A DNA stretch of 64,000 bases from NCBI GenBank assembly GCA_976551045.1, contig CDPCPM010000323.1, forward strand, positions 4,092,001-4,156,000, given 5' to 3'. Shown one piece after another: positions 191-60,781 of this stretch. Each line of letters starts with the position of its first letter. Position 1 is the first letter of the stretch. Under the pieces are notes generated by a model that saw nothing but the letters and a program-made list of their open reading frames with translations, had not been told where the DNA came from and did not search any database. A program made the translations under genes and the position numbers. The DNA is from Glaucostegus cemiculus. Taxonomy: Eukaryota.

Positions 191-309
191 ACTCAAGAGA
201 CTGCAGATACTGGAATCTGGAGCAAAGAAACAAACTGCTGGAGGAACTCAATGGGTCAACTCAGTGGCTGTTTGACTCACTGAGTTCCTTCAGCGGTTTG
301 CTTCTTTGC
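191..309. mobile_element. Penelope-like fold-back mini-insertion with 15-bp TSD
   Basis: Arms gcaaagaaacaaactgctggaggaactcaatgggtcaac and gtttgactcactgagttccttcagcggtttgcttctttgc are imperfect reverse complements. Exact flanking direct repeat aaaggagtaatgtag at 176-190 and 310-324. Confidence 0.75.
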
Positions 310-1639
310 AAAGGAGTAATGTAGCTCTGTGATTTAGATGAATCATTGCAAACTTTGGGCATTGGTTCAAAGGTGAGTGCTCAAGGGTGAATGCCAGTCC
401 ACTTGTTGGCATCTCTTGAAAGAAGAGCTAAGATTCGGAGACCTTGCAGTCTATGGCAAATGATCAAAACTAATTTCACACAGATTGCAGCCTGGAGCAT
501 GTTGAAGCTAAACCAGTTTCAGCTATTGAAAGATACAGCGTGCCTTTGTGCCCATGATCTCCACACTATCTGAGTTGTACTGCCATAAAAAAAAGAAGTA
601 AGCTTGTTCCTCATGAGTGATGGGGCGGGATGGAGGATTTTCGTCTGGCTTGTTCACAGATACCCCCTGGCAGCTGATGTTGATCAGGCCCAGGACCTGG
701 TTGTTTGTCTACTCACCCAGTTTCTGAGCTAAGTTGCCTGAGCTCTGTACTCTAACATTTTCCTTTCAAACATTTCTGTCTTTTTCTGCCTTTAACTTCC
801 CTTGAAAAACAAAACAATGTTTTTCCTGGCCCCGGATTTCACTGAATGAAAAATGCCTTGAGATTCTTTGTCTATTGTGGATGCTTTTTAAAGGCAAATT
901 GTTTTTATATAATGTATGAGTGGTGGAAAGGGTGGTAAATAACTTTTTTTGTGAAAAGGTAATCTTGCTCTGAAGAGGCTGATGTTAATGAATAGGCTCT
1001 TAAATTTAAATTAATTATTTGTGACAATTATGCGTACACCCAACTAAAATCTGCAATATTTCTGAGACAAAGTTAATTTATCTAAAGATAGTCATCCAGG
1101 GGACAACAGCACACCAATATAATTGAAATATAATTTCTGCAATTACAATACATTTCTGGTGATCTCATCTTTAACCTGCACATGAACAGACTCATTTCTT
1201 ATCATGTATCTGCTTTAAAGACACTAGCTGATGATTATGCCAATTAACATCACAGCTTGAAACAAAATTTTAAGTGCTGACCTACCAATGGCTCTTTGCA
1301 AAGTATCCTGTCTATGTTTAGTATTGTTAAGAGTGCCATTGAATGACTCATTAATCACACCATTTTCAGGTTGCTTAGCAGATGTTATTAAAGTGTTATT
1401 TAAACATTTTGAAGAGAGCTCTATCAAACAATCTTTTAAAAAATGTTATCAGTGCAAAAGGTTTGTTCATGACCTTCTCATCGCTACTTTGATTGAACAA
1501 GGATTCCATCTCTCTCCTCCTATAACTTCCAGCTTCAGGCCTAACACTCCTAACACTAACTGAACTAATGGCCACCTTTCCTAAGCCCTTTTTACCTAGC
1601 TCAGTGTCAAACTCTTGGCTAAGAGTCTGAGACCTTTCT

Positions 1640-1745
1640 CTCCTTTCCAGTTCTGATAAGGAGTCTTGGACCTTAACATTGTTTTTCTTTCTACAGATGC
1701 TGCCTGACTTGCTGAGTGCTTCCATAATTTATGGGTTTTTCTTCT
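1640..1745 (+). mobile_element. Penelope-like 3' end with decayed hammerhead motif
   Basis: cagttctgataaggagtcttggaccttaacatt followed by the family tail cagatgctgcctgacttgctgagtgcttcc. Confidence 0.65.
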
Positions 1746-2344
1746 TTTCTAATAATGGTCCAGTGAAATGTTTTGGAAAGTATTTATTACATTCAAAGTT
1801 CTTTAAAAATATAATTACTTGTAGCATGACTCACAAGTACCATTTTATTTGTTTGTGGAAAATCATTGGTTGGATCTCACAAGCCCCAGGTGCCCTGCAG
1901 TGAATGCCACACTAATAGGGGCCCCCATTAACTATGGAACCATGGATTGCAGCTCAAAAGCTCACTGAAAGTCCATGTGCAATTGCAAGTTTAATGAATA
2001 GTGAGTGTTACCTCTCTGCTGCTGACAGCAAAACCTGGATCAGTGCCAGTTGTAATGTAATTTGGGCAAGTATAATGTCGTGAGCATTAGAAGAAAACAA
2101 CTAATGACGTGATTGTTACAGAAATGGTTAATGGCCAAGCTGAAGCTGATTTTGGTGGTAAACTAAATGCTTATTGTGTCTAATCTCCATTGGACTACCA
2201 TGACCTGGGCAAATGACATGTTAAACTATACAGCCAAACAATATAACATAAGCTTACCCACACACCAGCTGTATTTGATTCTGAGCACCAAGAGAAACCA
2301 TCAGGCCCTGGAGAAATTACTGAATACTTTATGACTGACAGATA

Positions 2345-3990: not shown

Positions 3991-4334
3991 TAATTATGAT
4001 GTTGGTTCAAAACAATTAGAATATTGTGATCATGACATCACTACTTTACTACATCTCCTCAAATTATCTTCCAAAGGTGATCTCAAACCATAGAATTTTC
4101 TATTGCATAGTACTAGTGAAAATTCAGGAGTACTCTGAGATGGGTGTACTATGGAACACATTGATTTAATTTTATGCTGAATAAAAAAGTCAACATTAGT
4201 TAACGAAGGTGAACAGAAATCAGCTGAGAAAAGGGTTCATAATTCAGTTTGGGAAGAATCATTTCACCTCAAACAAAAATAGCCTTTAACATCATCCTTA
4301 ACACCATCAACAATGAAGAAAGGTACTGGTAAAA

Positions 4335-4505
4335 ATCCAAAAAATTCCGGAAACACTCAGCAGGTCAGGCAGCGTCTATGCAAGGAGAAATAGAATTAAC
4401 AATTCAAGTCAAAGACGCTTTGTCAGACCCTGCAAAGATTGATCTGCTGAGTGTTTCCTGCATTTCCTGGTTTTGCTTCAGATTTCCAACATCTGCAGTT
4501 TTTTT
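4335..4505. mobile_element. Penelope-like fold-back insertion
   Basis: Left arm ggaaacactcagcaggtcaggcagcgtct; right arm gatctgctgagtgtttcctgcatttcc...cagatttccaacatctgcag; degenerate hammerhead on the minus strand at ~4394-4428. Confidence 0.7.
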
Positions 4506-4644
4506 TAAAATTATTTTCTCGTAAATAGTATTTTTCCTTTAAAAATACCGAAAGATGGGAAGCCATGGAATAGATCCTAAAACAGCAATTTTATTTTGTT
4601 TTTTTTGTCTCTGATGTTTAAAAAAAACTTGCATGGAGGAACAG

Positions 4645-6834: not shown

Positions 6835-8379
6835 AATCAACACCAATTTAAATACCAATTAACTGGTTTATCATTAAAGCCAGTCAGAGAGGGCATGGTG
6901 CATACTGTGCATACATTTGATCTGGTAATTCAGTTCCTGTTCCACAGGAGAGTCATTGTGACACTATGATGATAACAAAATAAACATTATGAGCAGTGGG
7001 CTAAATATGTGACTTGAAGTGAACCTATTTAGGCTTTTCTGCATGTGTGTTATGAGCAAAATTAGCTCACTGCAAACTGCCTATGAATAAATCTTCTCTT
7101 GTGCATTTATTCCTTTGTGTCCCCATTTGTTGTGGACATCATTCTGTGGCTGGAGTGATTGCAATGAAAACTTTATTTTGAATTACTTTAACCCTTAGCA
7201 ATTTGAGAATAATACTCTGTACCCGTGTGATGAAAATATGTGGGTTAAATTCCAGAACTGACACGATAAAGTGATTGTAAGGTAGCGTTACAATGACTTG
7301 TTATTGCAGTTCATTGTGACTATTTTACATTAAAGTTGCATACAAATTAAAGACAATTTACAACTTTTGTTTAGTCTGAGGTATATAAGAAGATGCTTTG
7401 GAACATTTCATCACAGGTTTGTACATAGTGACGTATAGATCAGTACTGAGTCATACATGGCTCGTAAACAACTTAAAGGGTATGAAGTTCTCCCCCGTGC
7501 AGATATCTAAAGTTGAATTATTCTGTAGCATCAATCATCAGAGAAGCAGAAGGCATGTCATGCAGCAGCAGCTAACATTGAGACCCAAATACAGTCTGAA
7601 ATCTAAAAACAGAGAAAGTGCTGGAAATGCAGGAGATTTGGTGAAACACAAAAATAAAGAGAGATTTTCCTGGTTTTTGCAACTTGACCTAATAGATATT
7701 CTCCCTACTGAAAAAAAGTTGGAGAGCTGAGACATGTAAAGGAATCCATTTGATATTCCATAATTAACCTAAATGGAGGAAAATTGGGTTGCTGTCTGTA
7801 ATGCATCCAGTTTTCCAATATGCACTGTGCCAGAGCTCAAATGAAAGAAACTTCCCTATAGCTTTTTTCTGCACACCATCAGGCTAAGACTACATCATTA
7901 AAATAGCAAATGGAGAAGAATTCATTCACTGAGTTGATCAAAATGCTACAACAACAATGACTTCAGGTGTTGATAGCCCAAGTGTCAATTTTGAAATCTG
8001 ACCCACAGATATTCATCATACAAGTGCAGAGTATAATTCTCAGATTGCTGAAGGTTAAAATAGAACAAAATAAAGTCACCTTTAAGAATGACTTTACTAA
8101 TAGCAGAATATAGAAAACAAGTTACTTCTGTCACAAAGGAAAGAGAGCAAAGGAAAAATGGAATCCAGGAATGAGTTGGCCAGTCAGCCCCTTAAACCTT
8201 CTCCTGAATGCTATTGGATAGCAGGTGAGTTATATATTTAAGTAGATAGAGTTAAACCAATGTTTTCAATATTGTAACTATGTTGAAATGTAAACTTTTG
8301 ACCAGGAAAAGACAGGAAAGAGAGCAGAAGCCATATGGCATTTATTTTCCTTTTCAATTGAAGCTATTGGTACAATATT

Positions 8380-12520: not shown

Positions 12521-12824
12521 AAGTACTTGAAGCTTTGCCAAGAGTAGAAATAAGGAGCCCTGTGTGATGTAAGTAAACTTCAGTCTAATTGTGGCCAGAG
12601 AGGGCAATCAGCTTCCAACCCAAGGTGGGAACATGACCTAATTTCCATCCAATTTCAATTTCTTAACTTATATTATACTTTTTAACAATGCAGTGAAAGA
12701 CCATTTAGCCCATCTTGTGATTTATCAGATGCCTTACCATGGTATCATCCATCATTGAATCCCTTATCCCATGCGAGTGACTCCTCCAAAAAGAAAAGTC
12801 AGTCTTGAGCCACCCTACATGAAT

Positions 12825-12975
12825 CCAAAATAAAACTAGAAAATTCTGGAAAAACTCAGCAGAGGTTAGGCAGTATCTATGGAAAGATTAACAGTTAATG
12901 TTTCAGGTCAAAGAGACTTCATCAGAACTGTTTGTTTCTATTTCAGATTTCCATCATGTACAGTTTTTGTTTGAT
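12825..12975. mobile_element. Penelope-like fold-back insertion
   Basis: Left arm aaataaaactagaaaattctggaaaaactcagcagaggttaggcagtatctatgga; short right arm tttctatttcagatttccatcatgtacagttttt. Confidence 0.7.
12890..12932 (-). ncRNA. Minimal type I hammerhead ribozyme motif (best-preserved copy)
   Basis: Minus strand AACAGUU-CUGAUGA-AGUCUCUUUGACCU-GAAAC-AUU-AACUGUU: 7-bp stem I, both core boxes intact, imperfect stem II, and the stem III palindrome ACGU changed to ACAU. Confidence 0.7.
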
Positions 12976-13340
12976 TGACATAAATACATGCTGTCTCTCT
13001 CTCTCTCTGATCACATCATATGTCCAAATTTCAGTCAATCTAACCCTGATGATACAAATTTACTCCCAACAGATGTTAAACACATCAAATAGTTTTGGCA
13101 AGTTACTTCAAGAAAATGCAATAGTATTTACGCATTTTCTTCCAATTAAGAGGTAATAGAAGTTTTAAGAGCAGTATCAGAGTTGTAAAGCTGGAACTCC
13201 CAGCATCCTAATGAATAGCTTAGCCCTCTAACGTTACGAAGGAAAAAGGATTACATGGGGTATAGCATGTGGCCAATGATAGATTCTTGATGGACTTTTT
13301 AAGATAACGATATGGAAGAGAAATCATTGTTGGATACAAA

Positions 13341-13450
13341 TAACCAAATAAAAACTTTCTTCATAATCTAAGGAATCCAGGAATAACTCAGTTAGCCATC
13401 ACTTATAACATGGTACCACAATCTATTGGTACCACAATGCTTAGGAATCT
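13341..13450 (+). repeat. 110-bp direct repeat, copy 1
   Basis: taaccaaataaaaactttcttcataatctaaggaatcc...ttaggaatct; 5 substitutions relative to 15249-15358. Confidence 0.95.
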
Positions 13451-14700: not shown

Positions 14701-15248
14701 ATGGGGCTCACAAGAAATATCTGCAATGAATGAGGGCCTTCTTTATCATCTTCTTTTGATAGCTGTAAAAATTTCTCTATCTGTATCCTGCTATAATCGA
14801 TTTGAGTGACCGCACTTGTTCAGTTATTAACTCGCTCTATACAGGGCACACTTGTGGTTTGACTGGAAGGCATTCATCAGTTTTAAATCTTGCCTACTAT
14901 ACCCAGCACACTATCTGTAACACGACCTCTTACGGCCCAACATCAAAAGGAGAGTTGGTGCCCATGTGACTCAACAGAGAATAATAACTACTTTTCAGTC
15001 AGTGTCAGAATTTTTCTTATTGTGGTGAGGTGTTGTCCTTCAAAAACAGCCAGAATTTGCAATTTGTGGCCCAACTTATCACAGCTGCAGGCTGCTAGGC
15101 AAGGAATTCCCATGTCAATAAAATCCTCAAGTTAGTTGGAGGGTTCCTGTCACACACAAGTGCAATCATATCAAATATACATCTTTAGAAAATGTGCATT
15201 GGCATAGATGGAATTAAATGTCCATAATCACTGTTGTGCATGGATAAC

Positions 15249-15358
15249 TAACCAAATAAAAACTTTCTTCATAATCTAAGGAATCCAGGAATAACTCAAT
15301 TAGCCTTCACTTGTAACATGGCACCACAATCTATTGGTACCACAATCCTTAGGAATCT
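15249..15358 (+). repeat. 110-bp direct repeat, copy 2
   Basis: Matches 13341-13450 at 105/110 positions. Confidence 0.95.
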
Positions 15359-15970: not shown

Positions 15971-16639
15971 TAATTGGAGATCTGAACCTGATCAAGTAAG
16001 TTTGCCCAGAAACAGCAACATAGAAAATAGGAACAAAAATAGATCATTTGGCTTGCTCTGCTATTCATTACAACCACGACTGTTCATACAGTTTTGGTAC
16101 CTTATTCCTACTTTCTCCCCATATCCCTTGATCTCTTTAAACAGTCAAAACTACAGCCTTCACTATTCTACCACAGGGCAAAACATATTCATGCTCGCCT
16201 GTTCACTACCAATATTTAGATAATTCCCTACAATCACAACAATAAACCTATGTCTTCTATTAATTGCAAAACATAAGCATTTGGAAAATCTTTGTGGTTT
16301 GCAACCAATGAATAAGTTGCCCAGGTGCCTTTTTCTGTTGTTAAGACCAATGAAAGAAGCAGCTGTTGGGCCTTGAAATTCTTTTGCATGTATTATTCAT
16401 AATTGAGAGACCAACGTAAGGTTTCCTTTTACATAATCACTAATTTCATTGTATCTTAATTTTTTGTAAAATATAGGAAAAATTGAGAAGCTATAGGCCA
16501 GATTTAATATTCCCACTCAAAGTCATATTTTTATTGTTGAATACATTATTATACAATAATACGTAATACATGTCCAAATTTATATATCCCACAAATATGA
16601 ATTACAGCCTTTCCTGTATTGATTGGAATTCAGCCAATA

Positions 16640-16770
16640 AAAGGTCATTGACCTGAAACATTGTCTCTCTTTCTCCACAGATTCTACCTAGCCTGTTGAG
16701 TATTTCTAGCATTTTCTGTTTTTATTTCATATTTTCATATTTTCAACACCTGCAGTTCATTGCCTACAGA
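16640..16770 (+). mobile_element. Penelope-like 3' end with 3' half of the hammerhead
   Basis: aaggtcattgacctgaaacatt then ctccacagattctacctagcctgttgagtatttctagcattttctgtttttatttca. Confidence 0.7.
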
Positions 16771-16789
16771 TCATTTATCACTTATCTCT

Positions 16790-18479: not shown

Positions 18480-19060
18480 CGATAAAACCTCTCTCTGTGG
18501 GCAGGTTGGCACAATGGGTTGATTTGGGTAAGGTTATCAAAGGAGATGGAGAAAAACAGAATGGTGGAACAGGTTGCCTACCACTGCATCAGGGCCACAG
18601 CTGCAAAACACGATTGTGAAAAGAGGCATATCTTGGTTTGTGAGATGGGTCAGCAGTAAAGATTGGTGCAGAGGGTGGAGATGTAGGAGGACGCTTGCAG
18701 GAGTAGTGCCGCAAGCAATACGTGGTTCATTAATTGAATTGATTTCAGTCACTGTGGGAGAAGATAAAATTTATCTGCACAATCTCCCATCAGGATAGGA
18801 AATTTTGAATCAGTCATTCTCAAAAGAAGCAGGTCCTGGAGTTGATTCAGTTCATTTTATCTGGCATGGTGGGGCAGGCATGTGAGTGGACACCCCACTG
18901 CTTTGATGCTCCGTCGGGCATTTTGAAGACATTTGAGGCAAGGATTCAAGTGTTGGGGCCCCTCCCAAAGAAAGTAGAAGGCCTTACTTCTGAACTGGGG
19001 ACAAATATGTTCCCTCAAACAAGAATATTGCTTAGGCTTCCATTGCAGACTACGCAAACA
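18480..19060 (-). pseudogene. Possible Penelope-like reverse transcriptase relic
   Basis: Minus-strand fragments KAFYFLWEGPQH, FSYPDGRLCR*ILSSPT and TPASVLLHLHPL...QDMPLF are collinear with PLE RT/thumb motifs (ALxFFLxxRP, GxLxTxIYxKPT, IPxSQFLRLRRICS...MxxFF). Very decayed. Confidence 0.35.
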
Positions 19061-19639
19061 TGGCTCAATTGACGATTGTTCCTTCAAGTAATGCTTGAGC
19101 TGCCTAGAACCTTCCATAGAGACCTGCCTTCCTGGCAGAGGCCCACACTTCTTTCCAGGCATGTTGCAATGTTGCAGCAATGGTGTCAAATATGCATGGG
19201 ACACCAGCTGAGGTCACTGTTATGTTCAGTGACTTCCATTAATAGATACACCACACAGTCAGAATTGGCTGATTTATCTTTCCGTGGTGTCCCAGTTGAC
19301 AGTGCCATTCATGCTTGGTCTTTGAATTTACTCTTCAATCAGCTGTTATATAAAAGGTATCAGTTATATTTTTGAAATCCTAGGCCAGTGCGTCACTGTA
19401 TATTCCCTGTGGTGTGGGTGTTCATCCTACTCTGGATCTTTGTAGCGCCTTCCCAGTAGGTTCACTGCTGGTAATTGTTCATCTAATAAATCCAGGTGGC
19501 TTTGCTCTCTGTCAGGCCTGTCCTTCTGCTGCTGTGCTTTCTTTGCTTTTGAAGTTATTCCTTTCATTTGGCCAAGAGGCATCAATGGGACATGAGAACA
19601 GAAGGCCTGAACGTCACCTACCTGTTCTCAAGGCAATTT

Positions 19640-19700
19640 TCATGGCATTTATACCCTATGTACATATGCCCATGACAATAATGAACTTGAACTTGAATTT
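19640..19700 (+). mobile_element. Rex1/Babar-type 3' tail fragment
   Basis: gtacatatgcccatgacaataatgaacttgaacttga. Confidence 0.45.
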
Positions 19701-21579: not shown

Positions 21580-22052
21580 AGAACCATATAGTTATAGTGC
21601 ACACAAATAAGCCGTGTGGCCCACCATGAACTTCATGATTTTGAATACCTCTATCAGGTCACCTCTCAGCCTCCTCCAGCTGCAAGGAAAACAAACTCAG
21701 CCTTTCTATTTTGTCCTCATAATTGAATCATTCCATCTCAGGCAACATTCTGACAGATCTTTTTTTAAAATTTTTAAAATTTTATTTACAACTTGGTAAC
21801 AGGCACCTTCGGCCCAACGAGTCCACGCCACCCATTTTAAACCCCCAAATTAACCTACCCGTACGTCTTTAGATTGTGGGAGGAAACTGGAGCACCCGGA
21901 GGAAACCCACGCAGACACGGGAGAACGCACAAACTCCTTACAGTCAGCGACGGGAATCGAACCCCGATTGCTGGTGCTGTAACAGCGTCACACTAACCGC
22001 TACACTATCGTGCCGCCCAATGATCTCCTCTAAATCCCCTCCAGTGCAATCT
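21580..22052 (-). mobile_element. CR1 fragment interrupted by a young SINE
   Basis: cttcatgattttgaatacctctatcaggtcacctctcagcctcctc...caggcaacattctgacagatct [SINE] gatctcctctaaatcccctccagtgcaatc. Confidence 0.75.
21761..22018 (-). mobile_element. Young tRNA-derived V-SINE (HE1-like)
   Basis: Minus strand starts gggcggcacgatagtgtagcggttag (A box), then ggttcgattcc (B box), V-domain tgggtttcctccgggtgctccagtttcctcccaca and a CR1-like end; CpG-rich; possible TSD gatct (21756-21760 / 22022-22026). Confidence 0.9.
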
Positions 22053-25020: not shown

Positions 25021-25039
25021 AGTTATCCCATGTTCTGAA

Positions 25040-25479: not shown

Positions 25480-25920
25480 CCCTCCCAAGTAGATGTAAAA
25501 GATTCCATGTGTTATTTGAAAAAATACAGGGAACTGCTGAGGGGACCCAGTCACTGGCTGTTCCTCCACCAACAAGGCAAATGTAAATTAGCTTGTAATT
25601 TATTTGTGGATCTTGCTGTGCATCACTTGATTAGTGCTAACACAGAAAATGCTGGAGGAACTCAGCAGGTCAGGCAGCATCTATGGAGGGAAATAAGCAG
25701 TCCACGTTTCAGGTCGAGACCCTTCATCATGTTTCATTCCTGATTCATGAAACATCCCTCCATAGATGCTGCCTGACCTGCTGAGTTCCTCCAGCATTTT
25801 CTGTGTGTTGCTTCTGATTCCAGCATCTGCAGAATCTCTTCTATCTCCGACTTGATTGGTGATTTTTGCCCTGTTGTTGCAGTGCCTACAATCCTAAAAT
25901 ACTTCATCCTAAAGTTCTGG
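25480..25920 (+). mobile_element. Deu-domain SINE split by a Penelope-like insertion
   Basis: gtagatgtaaaagattccatg...tgtggatcttgctgtgca [insert] gcagtgcctacaatcctaaaatacttcat. Confidence 0.55.
25637..25849. mobile_element. Young Penelope-like fold-back insertion: perfect 52-bp inverted repeat, hammerhead core in the loop, 12-bp TSD
   Basis: 25640-25691 is the exact reverse complement of 25755-25806. Minus 25698-25729 reads UGAUGA-AGGGUCUCGACCU-GAAACGUG-GACUG. Flanks acttgattagtg (25625-25636) / acttgattggtg (25850-25861). Confidence 0.85.
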
Positions 25921-28330: not shown

Positions 28331-28414
28331 ATTAATGATGATGTAGTTGCTCTGAAAGATCTGTTATGGCATTACAACTTCAGTACACCCTTGGATCACA
28401 TGCTACAAGATAAG

Positions 28415-30794: not shown

Positions 30795-31040
30795 TTTGAA
30801 ATAAAAACAGTAAATGCTGGAAACACTCACAAGGTCAGGCAGCATCTGTGGGAAGAGAAGCAGTTAAAGTTTCAAGTCTGGGACCCTTCATCAGAACAGG
30901 GAAGGACAGAAAACAAGTTTCTTTTTTTTTGCAGAGAATCTGAGGAAGATATGGCTAGAACAAAGGAAGTATCTCTGACAGAATGAGACCAAATGACTTA
31001 AATTGGCAATTGGAAACTCATTGTGTTTCTTTGTCTCTGT
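30795..31040 (-). mobile_element. Penelope-like 3' end
   Basis: aaataaaaacagtaaatgctggaaacactcacaaggtcaggcagcatctgtggg followed by the hammerhead and the purine-rich reverse complement of the family spacer. Confidence 0.8.
30861..30898 (-). ncRNA. Minimal type I hammerhead ribozyme motif
   Basis: Minus strand UGUU-CUGAUGA-AGGGUCCCAGACUU-GAAAC-UUU-AACUG; core boxes intact, stem III mutated. Confidence 0.6.
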
Positions 31041-41984: not shown

Positions 41985-43008
41985 TTTAACTTGAACAAAT
42001 GTGAAGTATTGCATTTTGGGGAGCTAAACCAGGTCAGGACTTACACTGTAAATGGTAGGGCCCTGGAAAGTGTCACAGAACAGAAAGACCAAGGGATACA
42101 AGTATATAGTTCCCTAGAAGTGGTGATACAGATCGACAGGATGGTGAGGAAGGTATTTGGCATGTTTTCCTTCATCAGTCAAGGCATTGAGTACAAAAGA
42201 TGGCACAACATGTCACAACCATACAAGACGTTAGTGAGACCACACATGGAGTATTGTATGACTCTGCAGATGCTGGAATCTGGATCAAAATACACAAAAT
42301 GCTAGAAGAACTCAGCAAGTCAAGCAGCATCTATGGAGGGAAATAAACAGTCATCGTTTATTATTCCATGGTCTACTCTCCTATCGGATTCCTTCTTCTC
42401 TAGCCCTTTATTGTTTCTACCTATCTCCTGTTAATTTCCCTCCATAGATGCTGTCTAACCTGCTGAGTTCTTCTAGCACTTTGTGTGTATTGATAGATCA
42501 TTGTGTGCAGTTCTGGTCACCTAGCTGTAGGAAGGACTGTAAGCTGGAAAGGGTGCAGAAAGATTCACAAGGATGTTACAGAGACTGTAGGGCTTGGGTT
42601 ATAAGCAGACACTGGATAGGCTGGAGCTTCTACCCCAAAAGTGTAGGAGGCTGAGGCGTGACATCATATAACATTATGTATGATCTTATAATAGATAAGG
42701 TGAATGGTCAGGGTAGAGAAGTGAAAAACTAGAAGGCATAGGTTTAAGATGAGAGGGGTTAAGTTTAATGCAGACCTGAGGGGCACCTTTTTCACACTGA
42801 TGGTGGTGGGTATGTGGAGAGGGCTGCCAAAGGAAGTGGTAGAGCTGGGTACAATTACAATGTTTAAAAGACATTTAGGCCACCACATGGATAGGAAAGG
42901 TTTAGCAGTTTAGCAGCCAATAGGACTAGCTCAGGTAGGCAACTTGGTCAGCATGGACAAGTTGGGCTGAAGGGCCAGCTTTCGTGCTGTATAACTCTAT
43001 GACTCTAG
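41985..43008 (+). mobile_element. CR1 LINE, 5'-truncated
   Basis: ORF 41991 NKCEVLHFG...YKTLVRPHMEYC resumes as CVQFWSP at ~42502; tail gttgggctgaagggcc...tataactctatgactcta. Confidence 0.92.
42261..42499. mobile_element. Penelope-like fold-back insertion nested in CR1
   Basis: Arms acacaaaatgctagaagaactcagc...catctatggagggaaat / atttccctccatagatg...gctgagttcttctagcactttgtgt interrupt the CR1 EYC|VQFW motif; likely TSD attgtatg / attgtgtg. Confidence 0.85.
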
Positions 43009-44519
43009 CTTAAGAAACAGGTCACTCTTCTTAGGGTACCAACTTCTTATAGCCACACTATTTGCAAGTCAGTTATGTTCCTGCTGACAAGTGACACCCA
43101 GGATTTTTAAGGTGCAAGTCATGGTGAATGTAAAGGATTAAATGGTTAAATTATTGTTTGTCGGGCATAGTAATTTGCTGGCATTGTAGGACACAATTTT
43201 CACATCAGCCTGAAGGTTGTCCAGACCCTGCTGCATGCAAGCATTGATTGCTTCATTTTCTGTGGAATTGTGAATGGGATTGAACAATGTCCCCATTTTT
43301 GACCTTATGATGGACAAAGAATCATTGATGAAACAACTGAAAGTTGGATGCCAATCAACCCAGCCCCAGGACATTGTCCTGAGAAACTTCCACAGTGAGG
43401 TACTGGGGCTGAGTTGGGTAGACATCCAACATCCACAGCCATCTTGTGGCAGGTATGATCCCAGGCACAGGAGTGGTTTCCAATTGGTGCTCATTGACTT
43501 CAATTTCATAGAGCTCTTTGACACTCCACTGCAGTGTTTCCTCGCTGTTAAGGGCAATAGTTCCAACCCAGCCTTTAAAATCTGTGTTTGCATCAAGACT
43601 GTGATGAGATCTGGAGTGAAGTGGTCCTGGTGAAAACCAGACTGAGAATCTGTGAGTACATTATTATGGAGTAAGTACTGTTTGATAGCAATGTCAATAA
43701 ACACCTTCCACCATTTTGCTGATGATCAAGAGTAGAGTGATTGAATGGTATCAAGCCACATTGGATCTTTTCTGCTTTTTGAGGACCAAATATGCCTGGG
43801 CAGTTTTTCATATAGCTGGGCAAATGCTAGTGTTGTAGATGTACTGGGACAGCTTGTTCAGAGACATACCTGGCTTCAGAGTGTAAGTCTTGAGTACTAC
43901 CACAGGGATGTGGCTTCTTAGCCATTTCTTGAAATTCACATTTTGAATCAAACTGGATGAAGCCCACCTTCTGTAAGGGCAGGGTCTTCAGGAGGGAGCA
44001 GAGATGAATCATCCACTTGGCAATCTTAGCTGAAGGTAGTTGCAAATGCTTCACCTTTGTCCTTGGCACTCAGTCACTGGGGTCCACTGCTGTGAAGGAT
44101 GGAGTTGCTCTTGGATCATTCCCTTCTAGTTAACTATTTAATTGTCCACTACCATTTCATAACAGGTAGCAGACCTGCAAATACTTGGTCTTATCTGTAT
44201 TTTTTTTGTGTAGAATTGCTGAGCACTAACTCCTCAACTTTATAGAACCTAAAGATTAGCTAAACCAGACCATAATTGTCTCAGTATCTCTTACTAAAAT
44301 ACTTGAAAATAATTCAAGTAAGCAACAAAGGTGATCTACCAAATAAAAGGAAAATGTAATGTCAAGACACCATTCCTCTTCTTGTAGCTTTCTCCTCTTT
44401 CTCCTTGGAAACAGACAGGCTCTGCAACAATAATTAATTACAACTCTTGAAGTAGCACAAACCAATATTGTACGTTACATTTGTCCTTTAATATATCAAA
44501 AAACCCAAAAAGAAACACA

Positions 44520-46891
44520 TTCAAAATAACTGTGCTGCCTCTGTGAACTTTTTACTTTGAGGCATAATTGTCCACATGGACTGTGCTTCCAGATCTGCTC
44601 TTAATTGCCTCCACTTCTCCTGGACCATTTTGTTGAGGGTGGTGTTATTCTGCAAGGTTAGAAGTTCATCCTATGGAATCTCCCCGCCTGTTTCTATCAA
44701 GTATGTTCTTTGATGATAATCCCAAGAAAATGTCTGTTCTTCTGAAATAGAATGCCCTCCCCTGCTATGATGCTGTCTGCTTTGAGGCATAATGTGTGCT
44801 AGTTACCACTACAATCCATTACATCTGGCATTAGCCCGATGTCAACTTCATCCTCACTTCTACCGGTAACAAGTTCAGTTACCTTTGTCAGAATAGTGTG
44901 CCTGTCTTGTTTTGACTATGTCCTGCTTCTTTTTGCATTTCTAGTTTCCATGTTTGATGATAAACATCTGCATATTCATCAATGGGTTGAACGGCTGTAG
45001 TGATTGCTGATGTTGAGTTGATTTTCACAATCCTAACATGGTGTACCTTTATCAATCCCAGTTATTCCATTGCACTACTTGTAGGTGTGAAATTTCATTA
45101 TTCTCTTGGTTCTTTGGGCTCCCCACCAAAGAGCATCATTGTATGTTGACAGCACATGACTTTTTAGTTTTGTCTGCACTACCAAATTGATGCTTGATTT
45201 CCAGAGGACATCTCACATTGCTCCTGAATCAAATTGAAATGTTGCTGGCTACTGTCATATTGTCATCTTAGTGTAAATACATTGAGTGGGTGTTCCTTTC
45301 ATAGAGTTGAGTCTCCCCTTTGTCACCTGTACATTGTGTTTAACCGGTAAATAGCAAAAACAGAAGTTACAGGTGGTATAAATCTAAAATAAAAACAGAA
45401 AAAGCAGGAAAAATTAGCAGATCGGTGGAGAGAGAAATGGAATCTACATTTCAGGTCAGTGATCTTCCTTGATTTCTGTTTTGTTTTTATTTATTTTTCC
45501 TTTTTTCTCTCCTCTATCCTTTTCTTTTCATTCATCCTTTCTATTTACATCTCCATACGGACCACCTGCATTTAGCAAACCTTCACCACCCTCTTTCAGC
45601 AGGCACCACCACCACTTGTATCACACACACTCCCTTTGTTCCCTTAAACTCCTCTCTGCTACTTAAAATATATTTAGCTTCTGAATTTTCTCAGTTCTGA
45701 TGGATCTGCTTCTCTCTCTGTGGATGCTGCCTAAATCTCTTAGGATTTCCACCACTTTGTTTTTAATTCTGAATTTGACCTGGTCTCTAAATCTGCATGA
45801 TTCATCTCATCAGCTTCATGAACAATTGATGTTCTCTTTTTTGCAATAATTCCAGTCCATATTGTGCAGTTTTATTATGTATAGGAAATTACTTTCTCAG
45901 CCAATCATGTTTCCATCCATATGTGTAACAGCTCAGCAACCTTGGCTTTACTTTTCCGTGTATTCCTTTGTTTCGCCTATTGCCATGTGCACTTCTGACT
46001 GCTGGCCATCCAATAATTCCAACATAGCTGTTGGCACTTCTCTAGACTTAACTTCTCACTTGATAACCATCCTTTAGGGTAGACTCCGTGGTTCTGTAAA
46101 CAACCTGATCTATGACAAGTGATTCCTTCAAATATGAAAACTGCAGTTATTTCTGAACAATCTTAGCTCTGCTAAGGAAGTAGCAAACAATTATCTCTAC
46201 TCCTAGTTGTACGTATGTATCTAAAGAATCAGCAAACGGTCAACAATTTCATTTCTAGGTGGGTTACAATGTATTTGTAACTCATCTAATGCAGTGTGTC
46301 ATTTTAGGGCTCTATGCTATTGTACAATTCTCTTCTCTTGTGACATATAACAACATTTTTATTTTAGTCTGCTCTAATTTATCTGCCATACTTAATTCAA
46401 TATATGGTATGAACTCTTCCTTCCACTTTCTCCACTCATGGGCAGCTACCTGACTGAAAATCCAGCAGCTGAGGTATTTTTATTTACTCCACCGTGTACT
46501 ACGTCAGTGGAAACACACAGCCCCACTGCCTCTTGACACACGTTCACATGTTATATCAGTTGGGAGGGATCATGCCTGGATATTGTAAGACTGAACCAGC
46601 CCTGTGTCTATATTCCATAGCTCCATCAACTAGCACTTCTGACGCCATGCCTCAGTACCTCTCCCCCTAAGTAACTGGAAAACAGTTGGTAATTCAAACT
46701 CAAGAATACTTTAGTGAATAAAACACAGCTTACAGTGTTTGAACAACATTTTCACATTGTAGCTTTCTCCACGGATAGCAACAAGTTCTCTCACAAGCTC
46801 CACACTAAACAAAGCTGCAACAGCAGAGAGAGGCATTTGGCCACATAATACAATCCTTAAAGCGACATCAACCAATATTACATATGCTACA
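44520..46891 (-). mobile_element. Decayed Gypsy LTR retrotransposon (LTR, PBS, gag-pol remnants)
   Basis: LTR 46648-46891 (minus TGTAG...CA), PBS-like tggcgtcagaagtg (46634-46647), protease FQFDSGA (45219-45239), LGLIKVHH, ILTKVTE and integrase-like HPQQNG (~44630). Confidence 0.7.
45375..45775. mobile_element. Penelope-like fold-back insertion nested in the Gypsy relic
   Basis: Left arm aaataaaaacagaaaaagcagg...catttcaggtcagtgatcttcc; pyrimidine-rich spacer; right cagttctgatg...tggatgctgcct...tttccaccactttgtttttaattctga. Confidence 0.65.
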
Positions 46892-48775: not shown

Positions 48776-50581
48776 TGACAATACTGAAGAATCAAACAAA
48801 TGAGCATCTCAGCAGTTAGGTACTAGAAGGCATTCCCTGTTAGTAGAAGTACACCCTAGGAAGGTGTATGACCTGCTTGCAGCCACTTCTGAAGGTGCCC
48901 ATTTAGGTCTTCCTTTGTCAGCAGATTGTCCCTTTAAATAATGTAAAAAGCAACAACCTACCACAACTCTACTGAGAGTGTTCCCCCACAGTTGTAGTAT
49001 GAAGCTTTCTGCTCCAATTTATGTCAATATGGGCAGAAATATGCAGTATATAAATAATGATATTTGTTCATGTCTGACACCAGGAAAACATTAGGTGCAT
49101 TAATGTGAACAGTGAGCTGAAGTGGCCAGTCCAATTTTGGCTCTGGTGCAAGTACACCTGGAAATGATATCCACTGTGATCTACTCCTTGTAAAATCGAA
49201 ATTGGATCAGAAAGTACCAAAGTACTGATGATTTACAACCTAATTATTAGGCTTAGAAGTCAGGGGAAACTGCTGAACTAAATAAATTGTCTTCTTTTAA
49301 CTGAATCTATCCTTTCAAATTAAGACTTCAACTCAGCTCAATATATTAAAATGGTAAATATTATGTTAGCCCGACAGCAATTCCATAACTTAATTAACAG
49401 GAAACTATATGCACATCTGTTAAAGTCCAAACCCATTAAAAGGTTTTGAGACAAACAAGGTAAGGTGTAACCAGTCATGGACAATGGACAAGCCATTAAC
49501 ATTCAAGATTACAGGAAACACCTGTTAGTTACATTGATGTGCTCATTACCAATTTAGCAAGCCAAACTGATCTAGTTCCAGAAGAATGTTCATACTTTCA
49601 GAAAAAGGTCAATATTGCTTTAATTAAAATAAAATGGCTTTATTGTACCCCTCCCCCAACCATTCCAAAAACTGAAATCTCTGAAGAGTCCTAATCATAT
49701 CTTGCTTATATTAATTAATGCTGCAAATGTATTCTGCCACAATATTTCATCTGTGTTACTTTTTGCTATTCTTGTTCAATTAATATTGAAAATCTGGAAG
49801 ACAAATCAACATTTTGTCTAATTTAGCTCAACTGGAGGCCTGTACATATGTCAAAATGTAAATGAATACTCTCCATTGTCTTAACCAATGTTTCAATCAC
49901 TGACCATGGCATTTCTGGAAGATAATTTACACTGATTTCATCATGTGATTTGGGATTGTTTCTCTGGTTATTCTAACATAAAATAAATGTTTTTATTAGC
50001 CAACAACACAAGCTCAACTCATAATGTGAGAGTTTTGGAAAAATTACACTAATGTTCACCTCCTCAAGTTTGTGTTCCTCCACTATCAATACTATGACCA
50101 AGGAATAGGTTCTTGGGTACTTCACAAGGGCAATTTTTTTGCCTTTACCTTAAGCCTTTCTTCAATATTCATCATTCATCTGTGACAAGGGCTAAGTAAT
50201 TATCCACTTCTTGATAGAAGTGTTAGTTTTTCTGTGCAGAATGATATCATTCCTGACTGTCTTCTGGTCAAAATTCATGCTGGGGCTCATGCAATTTTCA
50301 TCATGACTTTTGAGCCAATACAATCATGATGGTACAGAAAATGCAGAAAGCAGCTGAGCTGTACAATCAACAGAGTATTCAAAGGTCACAGTGGTAAGGT
50401 CCGTGCATGACAAAGATTGGATTTCACTGAAGGTTTTAAGGTCTTATAAACTGCACTTATGAGAGGCTTATCATCTCAGCATTGATCACCACAGTAAATA
50501 GTCAGTGAGACATTAAGGATCTTCTATTCCAGATGTAGAACATTCCATACTTTTCCTTCATATAAGGTATTAGGTACATGA

Positions 50582-50820
50582 AAGCGTAGCGGTTAGCGCG
50601 ATGCTGTTACAGTGCCAGCGATCGGAGTTCGATTCCTGTCGCTGACTGTAAGGAGTTTGTACGTTCTCCTGTGTCTGCGTGGGTTTCCTCTGGGTGCTCC
50701 GGTTTCCTCCCACATTCTGAAAGACGTACGGGTAGGTTAATTTGGGGGTTTAAAATGGGCGGCACAGACTCGTTGGGCCGAAAGGGCCTGTTACCACGCT
50801 GTAAAAAAATTTTTAAAAAA
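50582..50820 (+). mobile_element. Young tRNA-derived V-SINE (HE1-like), slightly 5'-clipped
   Basis: agcgtagcggttagcg (A box), gagttcgattcc (B box), V-domain, ttgggccgaaagggcctgtt and an A/T tail. Confidence 0.9.
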
Positions 50821-52759
50821 TATTCACTTGGCTAATGGTGCTGAATATCCAATGTACAGAGAGAAATCATTAAATTAAGCTTAGTTGATTAAATCAGAAA
50901 CTAGGACATGCAGAATGGTACTATGATCTTCCATAGTGTTAAGTTGATATCCTCTGAATTTTGGAAAACCTGCTCTACGCTGTGCTGCATTCACATTATT
51001 CCCTGTATCTCACATGATGTAAGGATATTATTAATTACTATATTCCCTCATTCATGTTATTTGTTGTATTTGTCCATTACTGCCCATCCTGAAATTCTGG
51101 CACCACCATACAATCTGGATTTCCCTGAGCCTGATCCATTATGTGATCAAGTCATCTTTCTTAAGTGTAAATTCTACCACCTTCTCACAGTGATTTTTCT
51201 GATCAAGCTTCTTCGGTCATGGCCCATCTACTAGACATCCAAAAAGACCACCAAGAATTAATACATTGCTCTTAATGCATCAGAAAGTCATTTAATAAGT
51301 TGTGGATTATTTTCTATCACATATCTCTTCATGTACAATAAGACGTTGGCTGATTTTTGTGGTGCCTTGTCTTCTGTGTGCCACCTCAATTAGCCACTAG
51401 TTAATGTAAAGAGTGGCAAGTGTTGATGCTGGATTGTTTGACTGGCCATTGATACCTTCGTCTGACAGGGAAATAAAGTTTGGTCAAAGTGAAATTTGTT
51501 GTGAACATCCAACTTATGAAAACATTCCAGGAATTGGTAATTCTGGGTAAAAATCCCCTTCTGTTACTTGTTGGTGCAATGTGGGAGCAAACATCTGGGC
51601 AAAGCACACACACTCCATGTTTTCACTATCTTAACTTTGATCCACGTAAAACTGTAGGTTGGGAGTGTATATTTGAACAGTCTGGGCTCCTATTGTGAGT
51701 CAATAATAGAATTCTCCCCCTCTGCCTTCAACTGATTAACTATCCTGTTCCTGTATATGGATAGACAATGCTTTGATGTTAAAGTATCTTCTTTCTTCTT
51801 TACATCTACTTACTCCACTATGATAATGCACACATTTCCAAAAGAAACCTTTAAAAGAGAATAAAGTTTTCAGGATTACTTTCATTTAAATCCTAATACT
51901 GAGCTACATCCTTAAAAATAACCATCCATTAAAACCAGGAATTCATATGTCCTTTCTTGTCCTGATTTTTCTTATAATTCTTCACTTTATACCTTGGCTG
52001 CCACAGATGTAAAGAACACCTTTGGCTCCATGCCAGTGCCTATTCTGTAACTCTTGTGTGGAGAATCCACTCTGCAGCTTCGTTGGTCTAAACCCCTTGT
52101 TCCCATTCAGACAGAGACTTCTGCTTCTGGGCAACATTATCTGCACCCATTGCAGAAATTTAGTATTTACCACGTTAGAACTGTTAGGTCCCTTTGGACT
52201 AAGTTTTGGGATCAGCATGACAAATAGTACTGAGTTTGGACCTTATCATAGTAAAGACAACACTGTAGAATGAAAGCATGCAGGTAAGTAGACAAGGACA
52301 ATTGTGAGGAATGGGGGTAACTGGTTGTCAACAGAAGCTTCAGTCAGGACTTAGGAGAAGTCAAAGGATAAAGTTCAAGGGGTTGGGGGACTGGAGTTCA
52401 GGACTTGTGTATCAAAGAGGGAACAGGAAACCCAGTTTAGGTGGGTGGAAGAAACTCAGTTTCAACAGGATGTCAGATGTTCATTGGAAGAGGACCCAGC
52501 TATGTTTAGAGTGGTGAGCAGCTTTTTTTTGAAGTAATGCATTGGTTAGGATTGTTTATCATTGTGGCAAATCAATATTGCAACATGAAACAGATCTGGG
52601 TCCCTTATTCACTTAGATCTTGTGGAAATAAACTCACTCATTATATCTATGGAGTAGCTCCGTGGAGGTCATAATAAAACGTATAATTTCCTTCCATTGC
52701 AAGGTTATTTTCTTTGTTAGGGGTAACATTTTATTACTCTTGGTGGTTTCTTATGGCCA

Positions 52760-55070: not shown

Positions 55071-56039
55071 TCTTTGTATCCTTTTAAAAAAATTTATAAG
55101 AAATAAAGACATAGATATATTGTGCCCTTGCTATAATATGTAAAATGATTACATATGTTTACAGTTTAATATGGAAGGGATGAGATGTTTCATTCTTTTT
55201 TTCCTTATTCTAATAACAAATGTTAAATACTGAAGGAAATGTTTCAAAATGGAAGACAAGACAATCAAGGGAGAATGAGGGATACCCAAGGAAAAATGTC
55301 ATGGAGTGAAATAGAGTAGGTAAGTGCACATGATCAATTTAAGGATGGTTATGGAAATGATTGCACACATTTAGAATAATATGTTTTGCAAGTCAGCTAT
55401 ACTCAAACTCAGCTGCTATTAAGCTAATCTAATTGACATGTTTATAATACAAGGCTGATTTTTTTTTTCTTTTGTGCAAATGAAAAGCTACCATTACTTA
55501 ACAATGCAGCTGTGCTGAGACTTTAGCAGTCAACTATCTAACTTTTCACTTTCAGTGAGCCTAAAGCTGTAACTGACTTCTGAAGTGAGGTCCTCAGTTG
55601 GTTTTGTAGAGAAGATGGATGTGACCTCTGGGTGGAGATGATCTCATTCTATATTCTATGAATGCCAAATCTGCTTTCAAAAGTGGCTGGGGGTGGTGTG
55701 GTGACGGTAGTGTGTGGGCATCTGCAAAGCATTTATAACTTCTCTTTATCTTCTGTCTTAAGTTGTTAAATCATTTCTAGGTGAAAAACAAGAAGACTGT
55801 GATAATAATTCACAAAAAGTAAAATAAGTTAGTATTAGTCATGATTGAGCTCTTCTGTATCACAAGAGAAACAGGAGTAAAACAAGAATTTAAACTGGTA
55901 GAGACATACAACTGTCGAGTTCATTGATGTAATTGAAGTGATGGTCCAATGGTTAGGAATTTGAATGTAATGGTCAGAAAGCAGAATGAAAAGGTGAGAG
56001 AAGCATAAAATAGATGACAGAAACATGATTATCAAAAGC

Positions 56040-56570
56040 AAAAAAAACCCTGCAAATGTTGTATATCTGAAATAAAAACAGGAAATGAGTTGCAACCTTT
56101 GAGATTCAATAGTGCATTCAACAATTTTAGATGTCCATCTTTTCCTGATTCTGTCAGAGCTGGTCACCAACCTGTCACATGATCTCAGTTTATCTCTTTC
56201 TGTAAATGCTACCTGACCTGTTGACTATTTCCAACATTCCCTTTCATTTCAGATTCCCATTACCTGTTATGATCTGCATTGTTTGTCTATTTTTTTCCTC
56301 CTGCCGCCTCACTCATGACCCTTTATTTCTATCCCTACCAGACAGATTAGCTATGATTAACTAGTTTTCACCACCCTCTTTCAGACAAAACCAACACCTT
56401 TTGTGCATCTAGATTTTGATCTCCATCTCTCCTCCTTCTTTGCAACTCAAAACTTGTTTCCTTCCTCATTCTTCCAGTTCATTTGAAGGGTCATTGACCT
56501 GAAACATTAACTCTGTTTCTATCTCCATAATGCTACCTGAACTGAGGAATACCTCCAGCATTTTCTGTTG
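56040..56570 (+). mobile_element. Penelope-like locus: inverted arm plus tandem pair of hammerhead-tail units
   Basis: Inverted arm 56040-56090. Unit 1: degenerate core at 56151, tail aatgctacctga at 56205. Unit 2: cagttcatttgaagggtcattgacctgaaacattaact (56475-56512), tail aatgctacctga at 56529. Confidence 0.7.
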
Positions 56571-57494: not shown

Positions 57495-57853
57495 GATATG
57501 ACAGTGTTGCAGCTGGCAGTGTCATTGCCTCACAGCACCAAAGACTGGGGTTCAATCCTGACATTGGGTGCTGCTGTGTGGAGTTTATGCATTCTTGCTG
57601 TGATCACATGGGTTTCCTCCAGGTGCTCAGATTTCTTCCCACGTTCAGAAGATATGTGAGTTGGTAGGTTAATTGGTCGCTGTAAATTGTCTCTGGTATA
57701 TAGGTGAATGGTAAAACTTGAGTTCATGGCTATGTGTACAGAATAAAACAAAAGGATTAACATAGGAGTAGTGTGAATAGGCAGTTGATGTGGGTGTGGA
57801 CTCAATGGGTCAAAAGCCATTTTCCATGCTCTATATCTGTATGATTCTATGAT
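57495..57853 (+). mobile_element. Older long V-SINE (HE1-like) with CR1-type microsatellite tail
   Basis: gggttcaatcctgac (B box), tgggtttcctccaggtgctcagatttcttcccac (V-domain), tail ctatatctgtatgattctatgat. Confidence 0.85.
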
Positions 57854-60627
57854 CAAATGTTAGATCAATATAGTTTGCCTTTTATGATCCTGGTGTTTAA
57901 ATGCTACAGCAAAAATAAAGTTATTATTTAATTATTTCCATCAATTGATACACAACAGACCTAAATTTGGAAGCAAAATTGGGGAATCAACCCATCTCCA
58001 CCCACAACGAGTAAGAAAGGCTTGGGAAGGGTAGGGTTGGATTGGGAAAGATGTGAAATTTGACCTCAATTCACAGCACAAACCAATTATATCTATAGTT
58101 CTATCTCTCTTACCCACTTCTGTGATCTCCATCCTCTGAACTGCTCTGTCCCCAGTAGTCATTATCTTCCTTTTCCTACAACCTTGCTCGGCCTTTTCTC
58201 CACCTTGGGTCAAGCACCACCTCTCACTTCCTCTCCATTGAGCACAATACTTGAACCCTTCCTCAGCTTTGGGTTCCCACCCGCTATTTTGGCCCACAGG
58301 TTTTCCCACCTAACAGTCAGTTTTGATTTGAATTTTGACCAGCTGCTTGACAGTAAGGTCATGAAATCTATTTAGATTCTGTCATTAAATTCAGAAGCCA
58401 GGCCTTCCTGGTGTTTGAGGTATCCCTGACTATGATATTCTGCTCCACAACCATCTCCTAATAAATATCATGGGCAGAGGCTCCATAATTACTTGCTGTT
58501 CCCACATATGCCCCCTGTTCTACCATCCCCAGTAAGATGTGCCACAGGGTATTTTATATGCAAATTGTTGCAAATTTTAGTCAATTGTTATTCTAAAATT
58601 CAAAAATTCAACATGATTTGAGATATTAGCTTGCTTATTTTCTTACTTTGAGAAGGGGTATTTTAGTACAAATTTAGAGCAGTGGTAGATGAAGTCGACA
58701 TTGATACTTGCTATTGATAGTAATAACTGTGCCCCAGGGACTATCATCTTGCTTGGGGCTGAAGCACAGCAAATAGAAATTCATTCTCAGTCGCATGTGG
58801 ACCTGAATTTCAGGAGCAGACTTCAATTCAGATCCATCACCCTACTGCACATTTAGAAAAAGCAGTCAAGAACCAATATCTACACTGTAGTTTTACCACT
58901 TCCTCACAGAATCATTGCTCAGCAAGATATGTGTGTGTAGACAATTTGTACTTACATAGTGCCATACACAATCTGAGGATATCACACATCACTTTGCAAC
59001 CAATGTCCCCAAGCAGCAATACGTGACCAGATAAACTGTTTTAGATAGTGGGGCGCACTAAACTTCTTCTTTATGAGCAGTATCACTGATTCTAGTGGCA
59101 AGTTGTAAAATTAACCCTTGTAAATTCACCATTTAACCTTTTCCACGACAGAAGGCATTACAGGATTGATTAGCTTAAATCAGTGATGGATTACACAGTG
59201 AACATAATATTAAAACACTGATACTTTTTTACATTAGGAATACAAAAACATTCTATGCATGTCCATATTTTTAAATATAATGTACATATAGTTGTGAAAA
59301 CCAAATTAAAGTCACTCAAGGTGTTAATGGAGCTGATACATTATAAATGTTATCACCCTGCTGGGTAGATCTTAACAAATGCATCCTCTGAACAATTTTA
59401 TTGAGATTAGCATTGCACTGATTAAACAAGTATAATCGATTTAAAAATTGTACTCAGCAGGAAATTAATCACCTAATTGTCTTGTCAACACGCCACCTGG
59501 TATGGGCACCGTACAGGAGTGTACACAGGCTGGATACAGTTGTTCAAATCCTATTCTGCGTATGACTTCTGGCAATCTTTCAATCATGAATCAAGCCAGT
59601 GAAGTACATGTTAGGGTAATAGTTCAGTAGCTGGGCAACTGACAGGAAATAGGATTGAGCAAACTGAACCAATCATCATACATTACTCAGCAATACTCCA
59701 AATGCGCATTTAACTAGGAAACTATCATTTATTTCTTGTGCTGTTAATGTATTACTTTGTCTAAGGCTAACCAAATTCAGTTGCTTAATATTCCCTAATA
59801 TTTAATATTTATATTTCCTCCATATGGTGTTCATCATGAATTTATTTTATAATCCTGTGATTTATCCCTGTCTGAAGAAGGCACTCTTATAACATTCTCC
59901 CACAATTTCTACTGACCCTCTGGGCTGAACTAAACACCTTAATTCTTCTCCATCAAATGCAATTTTACGGTCCTACTTTTTTGGACCTATGTCTCTTTGG
60001 CCTGAAAACTCCCTCTATTCTTGAATCCCATATTCTCACTTAATTAATCATGCTTCTTCATTAGTGAGTTAGGTTGGAACATTGTTCGTACATGGTTAGT
60101 AATATCAGCATGTTACCTCGACTTACTTTAAACCAGGATGCAAGTGGATGTGTATCATTGTTTAATTAGTGCCTCTGGCTTACATTTAATCAGATAAAAA
60201 AATTAACACATAATTCCCTTGATGTGTTAATTCCAAATTTTGGCCTAATTCATGCAGAATCCAAAATGAGGAAATGCTTAATTCCCTTTAGTTAATATGG
60301 CTTGAAAATTAGCATCCCTTCTTATCTAACATATCTGGCCAATCTTGAAGGTGAGAATGGAATAATTGTCTTCATTAAAGCCTCCTCAATCAAAGTAGAC
60401 AAGGCCTACACTAGGAAGGTTCTTATAACCTTTAAAAATTGCTGATGTTTGATTTACCTGAATAAATGGCAGTTCAATATTTACACATATTCATAAGTTA
60501 ACACTGAAGCATATGCATATTTTTATCAGAAGGAATAAAACCTTATGCCATTCTTTTCCCACTCCACCCCTATGCAATCATCCTGCCTCAGTTGACTCAG
60601 TACTCCCACATAATAAAATCAGGAAGT

Positions 60628-60781
60628 GCAGGTCAGGCAGCATCTGTGGAAACAGAAACAGAGTTAATGTTTCAGGTTGATGACCCTCCTTCATCAGAAC
60701 TTGCAATGGGTCTTCAGATTAATACATTAACTCTTTCTTTTTCCAAGGATGATGCTGTGACCTGCTAAGTGTTTCCTGCAG
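60628..60781. mobile_element. Penelope-like fold-back insertion with hammerhead core
   Basis: Minus 60662-60701 reads AGUU-CUGAUGA-AGGAGGGUCAUCAACCU-GAAAC-AUU-AACU; right arm cattaactctttc...gatgctgtgacctgctaagtgtttcctgca. Confidence 0.75.

Follow-up and report, generated by a model that had tools for sequence, protein, structure and literature searches.

Background

Minimal hammerhead ribozymes (min-HHRs) have been described in the pseudo-long terminal repeats (pLTRs) of Penelope-like retrotransposons (PLEs) of metazoans (Cervera and De la Pena 2014, PMC4209133). According to that report, they are type I hammerheads with a CUGANGA box followed by an extra nucleotide, a GAAA box, a short stem I, no loop III and a U-rich 5' flank. 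They occur as dispersed, heterogeneous single copies, thousands per vertebrate genome, and as opposite-strand pairs 100-700 bp apart, which were attributed to truncated PLEs. PLE insertions are further recognized by an inverted partner copy that is itself 5'-truncated, by partial tandems and by a tail of 30-40 nt at one end (PMC8557442, PMC8969392). The Poseidon element PAc of Anolis carolinensis was reported to insert in vitro without requiring hammerhead cleavage (Frangieh et al. 2024, PMC11167929). Here, we analyzed a dispersed hammerhead-bearing repeat family in a 64,000-nucleotide stretch of the genome of Glaucostegus cemiculus (GenBank assembly GCA_976551045.1, contig CDPCPM010000323.1, positions 4,092,001 to 4,156,000, forward strand), which is referred to below as the window. 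The family occupies 11 loci, and these are probably 5'-truncated 3' ends, that is, pLTR pieces, of autonomous PLEs, which have decayed and are now likely inert.

Several hallmarks described for PLE insertions are present in the window: variable 5' truncation, inverted partners, one partial tandem (56088-56569), a tail at one end and a hammerhead. A preliminary reading made from the letters of the window alone (the sequence-only reading) had assigned the motif to the minimal type I hammerhead of PLE pLTRs, and our consensus agrees with the published one feature by feature (PMC4209133). The traits of sequence and structure listed above are shared, as is the occurrence as dispersed, heterogeneous single copies and opposite-strand pairs. 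Two differences were seen: stem II is 5 bp here, the short end of the published range, and the palindrome has been lost in most copies.

The repeats also resemble PAc, in which a hammerhead is followed about 100 nt further on by an optional tail that lies between two classes of 3' ends. PAc likewise uses AT-rich targets, and the insertion site at 42261 contains ATT, its preferred nick motif (PMC11167929); unlike PAc, which is an intact element bearing an open reading frame (ORF), the repeats have no ORF linked to them. Non-LTR retrozymes of animals (bioRxiv 10.64898/2026.07.22.740005; see also PMC7229834) are similar in being ORF-less, in carrying a type I hammerhead and in being kin to PLE pLTRs. 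However, retrozymes form head-to-tail tandems with complete ribozymes, whereas the window contains inverted pairs or solo arms with variable ends. The supplement of the 2014 report, searched in its files other than file 1, holds no shark, Callorhinchus or Leucoraja entry (PMC4209133).

No publication on this repeat family was found in the literature searched (subscription papers and Dfam/Repbase lay outside its scope). Dimer cleavage of hammerheads was reportedly studied by Lunse et al., whose set may include cartilaginous fish.

Identification of the repeat family

A profile built from seven seed arms was run on the window, on the reversed window and on 10 shuffled windows. It identified 16 arms at E<1e-3, seven of which were the seeds, spread over 10 of the 11 loci named by the sequence-only reading. 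The reversed window yielded no match, and the best match among the shuffles had an E value of 0.014. The locus at 191, in which the same profile matched weakly (228-258, E 0.066), was secured by blastn (E 8e-4) and by an exact 15-bp flanking duplication. With profile search, blastn and flanking duplication taken together, all 11 loci of the proposed dispersed family were verified. We also detected an arm that had not been named before (56302-56569), which belongs to the locus at 56040. In total, the family comprises 20 arms at 11 loci, tail-dominated arms counted, or about 2,470 nt (3.9% of the window). A further model, R2, found the 11 arms on which it was trained, matched two known arms weakly and added a chance-level match at 37296 (E 0.69).

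Searches were also made in other sequence collections. A hammerhead pattern scan of metagenome contigs and a scan of viral contigs for a 21-nt motif each gave 0 matches. The 21-nt motif was found at six GC-rich loci in metagenome contigs; at these, the short motif alone matched, and they were rejected as chance.

The 11 units are as follows.

191..309, inverted pair of arms lacking a hammerhead; the minus arm at about 193-258 bears a tail, the plus arm 267-309 does not
1635..1743, plus strand, solo arm; decayed hammerhead with 8/11 core positions, no tail
4330..4505, inverted pair of arms; the minus arm holds a hammerhead remnant (9/11 core), the plus arm 4440-4505 bears a tail
12822..12978, inverted pair of arms; minus arm at 12822-12930, paired with a short plus arm made up largely of tail
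16625..16765, plus strand, solo arm with tail; 5' half of hammerhead decayed, 8/11 core
25637..25849, two-arm inverted unit of a better-preserved subfamily; minus arm truncated at hammerhead C3, tail on plus arm only
30797..30960, minus strand, solo arm without tail; at least about 50 nt of upstream pyrimidine-rich repeat sequence
42261..42499, inverted pair of arms inside a LINE-like repeat; truncated hammerhead, tail confined to the minus arm
45353..45780, inverted pair of arms; tail-bearing minus arm, and a long plus arm that extends about 170-220 nt upstream and whose hammerhead has an internal deletion
56036..56569, compound unit with tandem and inverted arms together; inverted minus arm 56036-56087 and plus arm 56088-56277, each bearing a tail, followed by a tandem plus arm 56302-56569 that lacks one
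60615..60780, inverted pair of arms; each reaches the hammerhead, neither has a tail

Structure of the insertions

At eight of the 11 loci, a pair of arms lies in inverted orientation, 3' ends outward, a feature missing from the sequence-only reading; the other three loci are solo arms. A tail of ~30 nt was present at one outer end only in seven of the eight inverted pairs and at neither end in the eighth; for this scoring, the compound unit at 56036 was judged at its outer ends, and the arm at 45704 is the least clear case. When positions were counted from C3 of the hammerhead core, the 3' ends formed two classes about 30 nt apart, each of 10 arms (+81 to +103 and +109 to +133), as expected from two initiation sites (PMC11167929). 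In the unit at 25637, a 52-nt stretch of one arm (25640-25691) is perfectly complementary to a stretch of the other (25755-25806), and a small palindromic filler separates them. Such perfect arms in a unit that has drifted from other copies fit an origin in the same event or later homogenization.

Clear target-site duplications flank two units. The unit at 191 is flanked by an exact 15-bp duplication (176-190 and 310-324), and the unit at 25637 by copies of a 12-bp sequence, at 25625 and 25850, that differ at one position; these exceed or sit in the top 0.3% of 1000 random pairs. The 42261-42499 unit has an 8-bp flank duplication with one mismatch, which is not significant alone. This unit interrupts an older repeat resembling a long interspersed element (LINE), and its flanks are colinear with unbroken copies at 24496 and 62365-62612. 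The LINE-like copy split by the unit extends over 41985-42976.

Inverted arms at both ends, together with flanking duplications in some units, could suggest a family of DNA transposons, such as miniature inverted-repeat transposable elements (MITEs), whose terminal inverted repeats resemble a hammerhead by chance. However, the arms are unequal, and the outermost ~30 nt are present on one of them only, so they are not terminal inverted repeats. In addition, there are three solo-arm loci, the clear duplications are of unlike length (15 and 12 bp), and all 11 hammerhead core positions are correctly spaced in the consensus. A MITE-like origin is contradicted by the one-sided tail and is hardly credible.

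Relative to C3, the 5' ends range from -182 to +80 in the 20 arms, a spread of about 260 nt, and their clustering was not significant (p 0.14-0.66). The junctions of the eight inverted pairs are all different, and no 5' end or junction is common to two units. Furthermore, sequence upstream of the hammerhead is homologous between two arms (45528-45700 versus 56309-56480, 63% over 177 nt, E 7e-7), which is an independent match. Variable 5' ends, differing junctions and ~170 nt of extra upstream sequence in two arms indicate ordinary 5' truncation and no single short master. A gathering of 5' ends at the hammerhead or its cut site was also considered and was not significant, the nearest ends being at +22 and +33 and the cut at about +29. 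That no 5' end lies on the predicted cut site agrees with the cleavage-independent insertion of the Anolis element.

The sequence-only reading had described the repeats as an ORF-less non-autonomous family, a proposal that these variable ends, differing junctions and upstream extensions do not support. Such a family would be a dedicated short one, SINE-like (short interspersed element) or a dispersed retrozyme, with its own masters mobilized in trans by PLE proteins. Every unit is indeed short (121-423 nt), no ORF is detectable in any unit, and the three best-preserved two-arm units resemble discrete insertions. Moreover, non-autonomous PLE derivatives exist, one chondrichthyan included (bioRxiv 10.64898/2026.07.22.740005). 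Nevertheless, we consider such a family unlikely, as the fixed ends of a SINE or MITE were not found and two arms continue upstream. As for a retrozyme, the tandem array that defines non-LTR retrozymes is missing: no head-to-tail array with at least two complete hammerheads was found in the window. An RNA polymerase III or tRNA head was not seen in the arm alignments either, although no dedicated ARAGORN scan was made. Truncated pLTR pieces of autonomous PLEs would account for the range of ends and the upstream extensions alike.

The hammerhead consensus

The majority consensus of 11 arms reproduced the motif proposed by the sequence-only reading. In it, stem I pairs AGUU with AACU; the core CUGAUGA is followed by an extra A and by stem II (GGGUC/GACCU), which closes a 3-nt loop, and then by GAAAC-(A)UU with U at position 17. 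All 11 hammerhead core positions are present with correct spacing. CUGANGA, the extra nucleotide, GAAA and NUH occur at the published spacing in the consensus and in 3 of 13 arms; thus, the intact motif stands for the consensus but not for most single copies.

Stems I and II showed complementarity, with 73% of 112 cells paired versus 19-43% when the partners were slid, a contrast favored by the fact that the structure was derived from the same consensus. The consensus has a G10.1-U11.1 wobble and a C-G-U-U ending. Both are precedented in the published alignment, in which G10.1-U11.1 closing pairs are found in cichlids, Latimeria 1 and Xenopus 1, and C-G-U-U endings occur too (PMC4209133). Decay of a CpG was considered as the source of U11.1 and ruled out: at positions 11.1-12, the aligned arms have TG in nine cases and CA in none (p 0.004). 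This asymmetry suggests that the wobble was probably already present in the master copy.

Pyrimidine runs ending in CAG (in the sense of the element) were observed at 1633-1650, 1682-1696, 16664-16680, 30846-30860 (minus) and 56469-56477. They are located directly before stem I and before an ATG-containing body and look like splice acceptors. In the Penelope element of Drosophila virilis, an intron ends at helix I (PMC4209133).

Decay of individual copies

A custom strict descriptor of the full hammerhead gave a single match in the window (C3 at 30894, minus) and 0 matches in 100 shuffled windows. Rfam at E<=1 reported no hammerhead in the window, only a hairpin and a CA-repeat chance match. 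All 11 core nucleotides are retained in 3 of 13 arms, all on the minus strand (C3 at 12925, 30894 and 60697):

30863..30897, minus strand, best hammerhead copy; 11/11 core, stem I of 3 bp and stem II of 5 bp, cleavage predicted 3' of 30866
12892..12930, minus strand, hammerhead with 11/11 core; 5-bp stem I, stem II broken, C-A at 15.2-16.2
60662..60701, minus strand, hammerhead with 11/11 core; 3-nt insertion before stem II, stem II mismatch, C-A at 15.2-16.2

No arm retains both the core and the palindrome. At positions 15.2-16.2, the 11 aligned arms have CA (six), TG (two), CG (one), CT (one) and a gap (one), so that the palindrome survives in 1 of 11. The CA and TG forms point to a CG ancestor lost by CpG decay on either strand; the mixture of CA, TG and CG fits such decay given the low CpG observed/expected ratio of the window (0.20). 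Identity of the arms to the consensus built from those same arms ranged from 0.67 to 0.91, with most around 80%. Folding z-scores of eight arms or tails were not below -1.5 in any case. The copies look old and unselected, with neutral-looking decay.

The best copy raises the question of co-option by the host, in which one or more copies would be active ribozymes that cut host transcripts. The whole core is kept in three arms, and the copy at 30863-30897 passes the descriptor. On the other hand, that copy lacks the palindrome; it has C-U at 15.2-16.2, so the palindromic dimer helix cannot form. The hammerhead was never the minimum-energy fold in the three core-complete copies, and a few intact cores among 13 are expected when most arms are around 80% identical to the consensus. 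Even intact min-HHRs showed no monomer cleavage in vitro (PMC4209133). Co-option is thus very improbable. More generally, the idea that the copies are working ribozymes was not supported, covariation being absent among the copies.

Search for a linked PLE protein

Stop-free frames of the window were compared with Pfam, covering 300 of 316 segments near the loci (>=32 aa) and 150 of 182 others (>=58 aa). Four weak matches were obtained, all below cut-offs, and a search of nine segments at E<=10, one of them outside the sets just named, gave nothing relevant. Pfam also missed obvious LINE-like reading frames, so its blank is weak evidence here.

Direct reading of the sequence drew attention to a short stretch where the plus arm of the 56036 unit has its inner end:

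56090..56131, plus strand, fourteen codons, LQPLRFNSAFNNFR

These codons seem to resemble the C-terminus of the PLE endonuclease and are a candidate remnant of it, an unconfirmed lead for which the pattern was written after seeing the codons. It received no support from a homolog search, Atlas (best 0.83), Pfam at E<=10 or solved structures.

A frame starting MLPDLLS was considered as the start of the ORF of the element and was not supported: profile searches gave 3 and 21 proteins, none with a reverse transcriptase (RT) or GIY-YIG domain. The matches are mostly spurious frames over the same repeat, and several span two inverted arms; P0005 and P0015 look unrelated. A gene model of Rhincodon typus (whale shark) was found by profile search to read through the same two-arm repeat; the family is thus shared with a shark, and the sequence by itself points to a likely cartilaginous-fish host. 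Penelope has been reported in the whale-shark genome (PMC8455134). In addition, P0007, a protein with a PIP5K domain, has repeat-derived peptide at both ends, which suggests an exonized or mis-predicted repeat in a host gene model.

Origin of the repeats

The observations comprise a common sequence with a hammerhead consensus, pairs of arms in inverted orientation, two classes of 3' ends, scattered 5' ends and two duplications, and the structural tests place the repeats among PLE pLTR remnants with a minimal hammerhead. Several points weigh against derivation from autonomous PLEs. First, no database match to RT or GIY-YIG coding sequence linked to the arms was found, in searches of low sensitivity. 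Second, flanking duplications were beyond chance in 2 of 13 flank windows tested, and most loci have none that is significant. Third, the nine tails recovered by the tail profile are those from which it was built, so only the absences of a tail are informative, and the far upstream extent of three arms is in part a match to themselves, as these arms seeded the reference and only the 45528/56309 match is independent. Finally, of the stem complementarity and covariation by which the sequence-only reading proposed to judge the hammerhead, complementarity was found and covariation was not. For the 11 arms, pairing was as good in 483 of 500 shuffles, and 415 of the 500 attained the covariation score, in an alignment with three of the 11 rows misaligned in stem I. 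Absence of compensatory changes among copies is expected for dead copies of few masters.

The insertions may have arisen as follows. A PLE protein would nick AT-rich DNA, as suggested by PMC11167929 and PMC4209133, and reverse transcription would start downstream of the hammerhead, at one or the other of two neighboring sites, leaving ends with or without the tail. Synthesis of cDNA would usually halt within 20-300 nt, and a second cDNA, made off the other strand, would often be added as the inverted arm. By analogy with described hammerheads, that of the parent element may cut weakly, either as a dimer via the ACGU palindrome or with the help of protein. After insertion, the palindrome would likely be lost by CpG deamination and the core by drift.

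A further possibility is that cartilaginous fish harbor hyper-abundant 120-240-bp double-inverted PLE units, which would be either short cDNAs primed at the upstream pLTR tail or self-propagating. We regard this as rather unlikely. If true, units spaced at roughly one per 6-8 kb would introduce perfect RNA hairpins (up to 52 bp here) into host transcripts, together with strong splice-acceptor-like runs, making them a shark counterpart of inverted Alu pairs.

Other features of the window

No host exons were recognized within the 64-kb window. A second dispersed family, about 250 nt long with a tRNA-like end, was observed at 21771-22018, 28406-28666, 50577-50830 and 57598-57665, three copies being 88-92% alike; it resembles the HE1/V-SINE repeats of cartilaginous fish. 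LINE-like 3' pieces with degenerate open frames, which we take to be CR1-like, are located at 24264-24994, 41985-42976 and 62271-62735 and gave no Pfam match. Clusters of open frames of 100-195 codons at 18857-19743, 29431-29911 and 43138-43725 read like decayed retroelement coding sequence; none of them matched Pfam above cut-off.

Two near-perfect palindromes, 50-60 nt long and not related to the hammerhead family, are present at 16259-16309 and 32107-32167, the latter with a below-threshold match to a microRNA precursor in the Rfam scan. Inverted arms at 7170-7264 and 7982-8076 (95 nt, 80% complementary, 717 nt apart) are possibly an old DNA-transposon remnant. In addition, a direct duplication of 113 nt (13338-13450 and 15246-15358) is 95% identical over a distance of 1.9 kb.

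Conclusions

In this study, we characterized a repeat family that reveals neither a new ribozyme class nor a new kind of element. In the window, the two 3'-end classes occur together with inverted arms, as in vitro experiments on PLE priming published in 2024 had predicted. If our interpretation is true, gene predictors read Penelope end fragments through into false proteins, as the 21 library matches, none with RT or GIY-YIG, would illustrate. Extrapolated from this one window, a few percent of the genome would consist of Penelope end fragments, possibly labelled as unknown by generic annotation.

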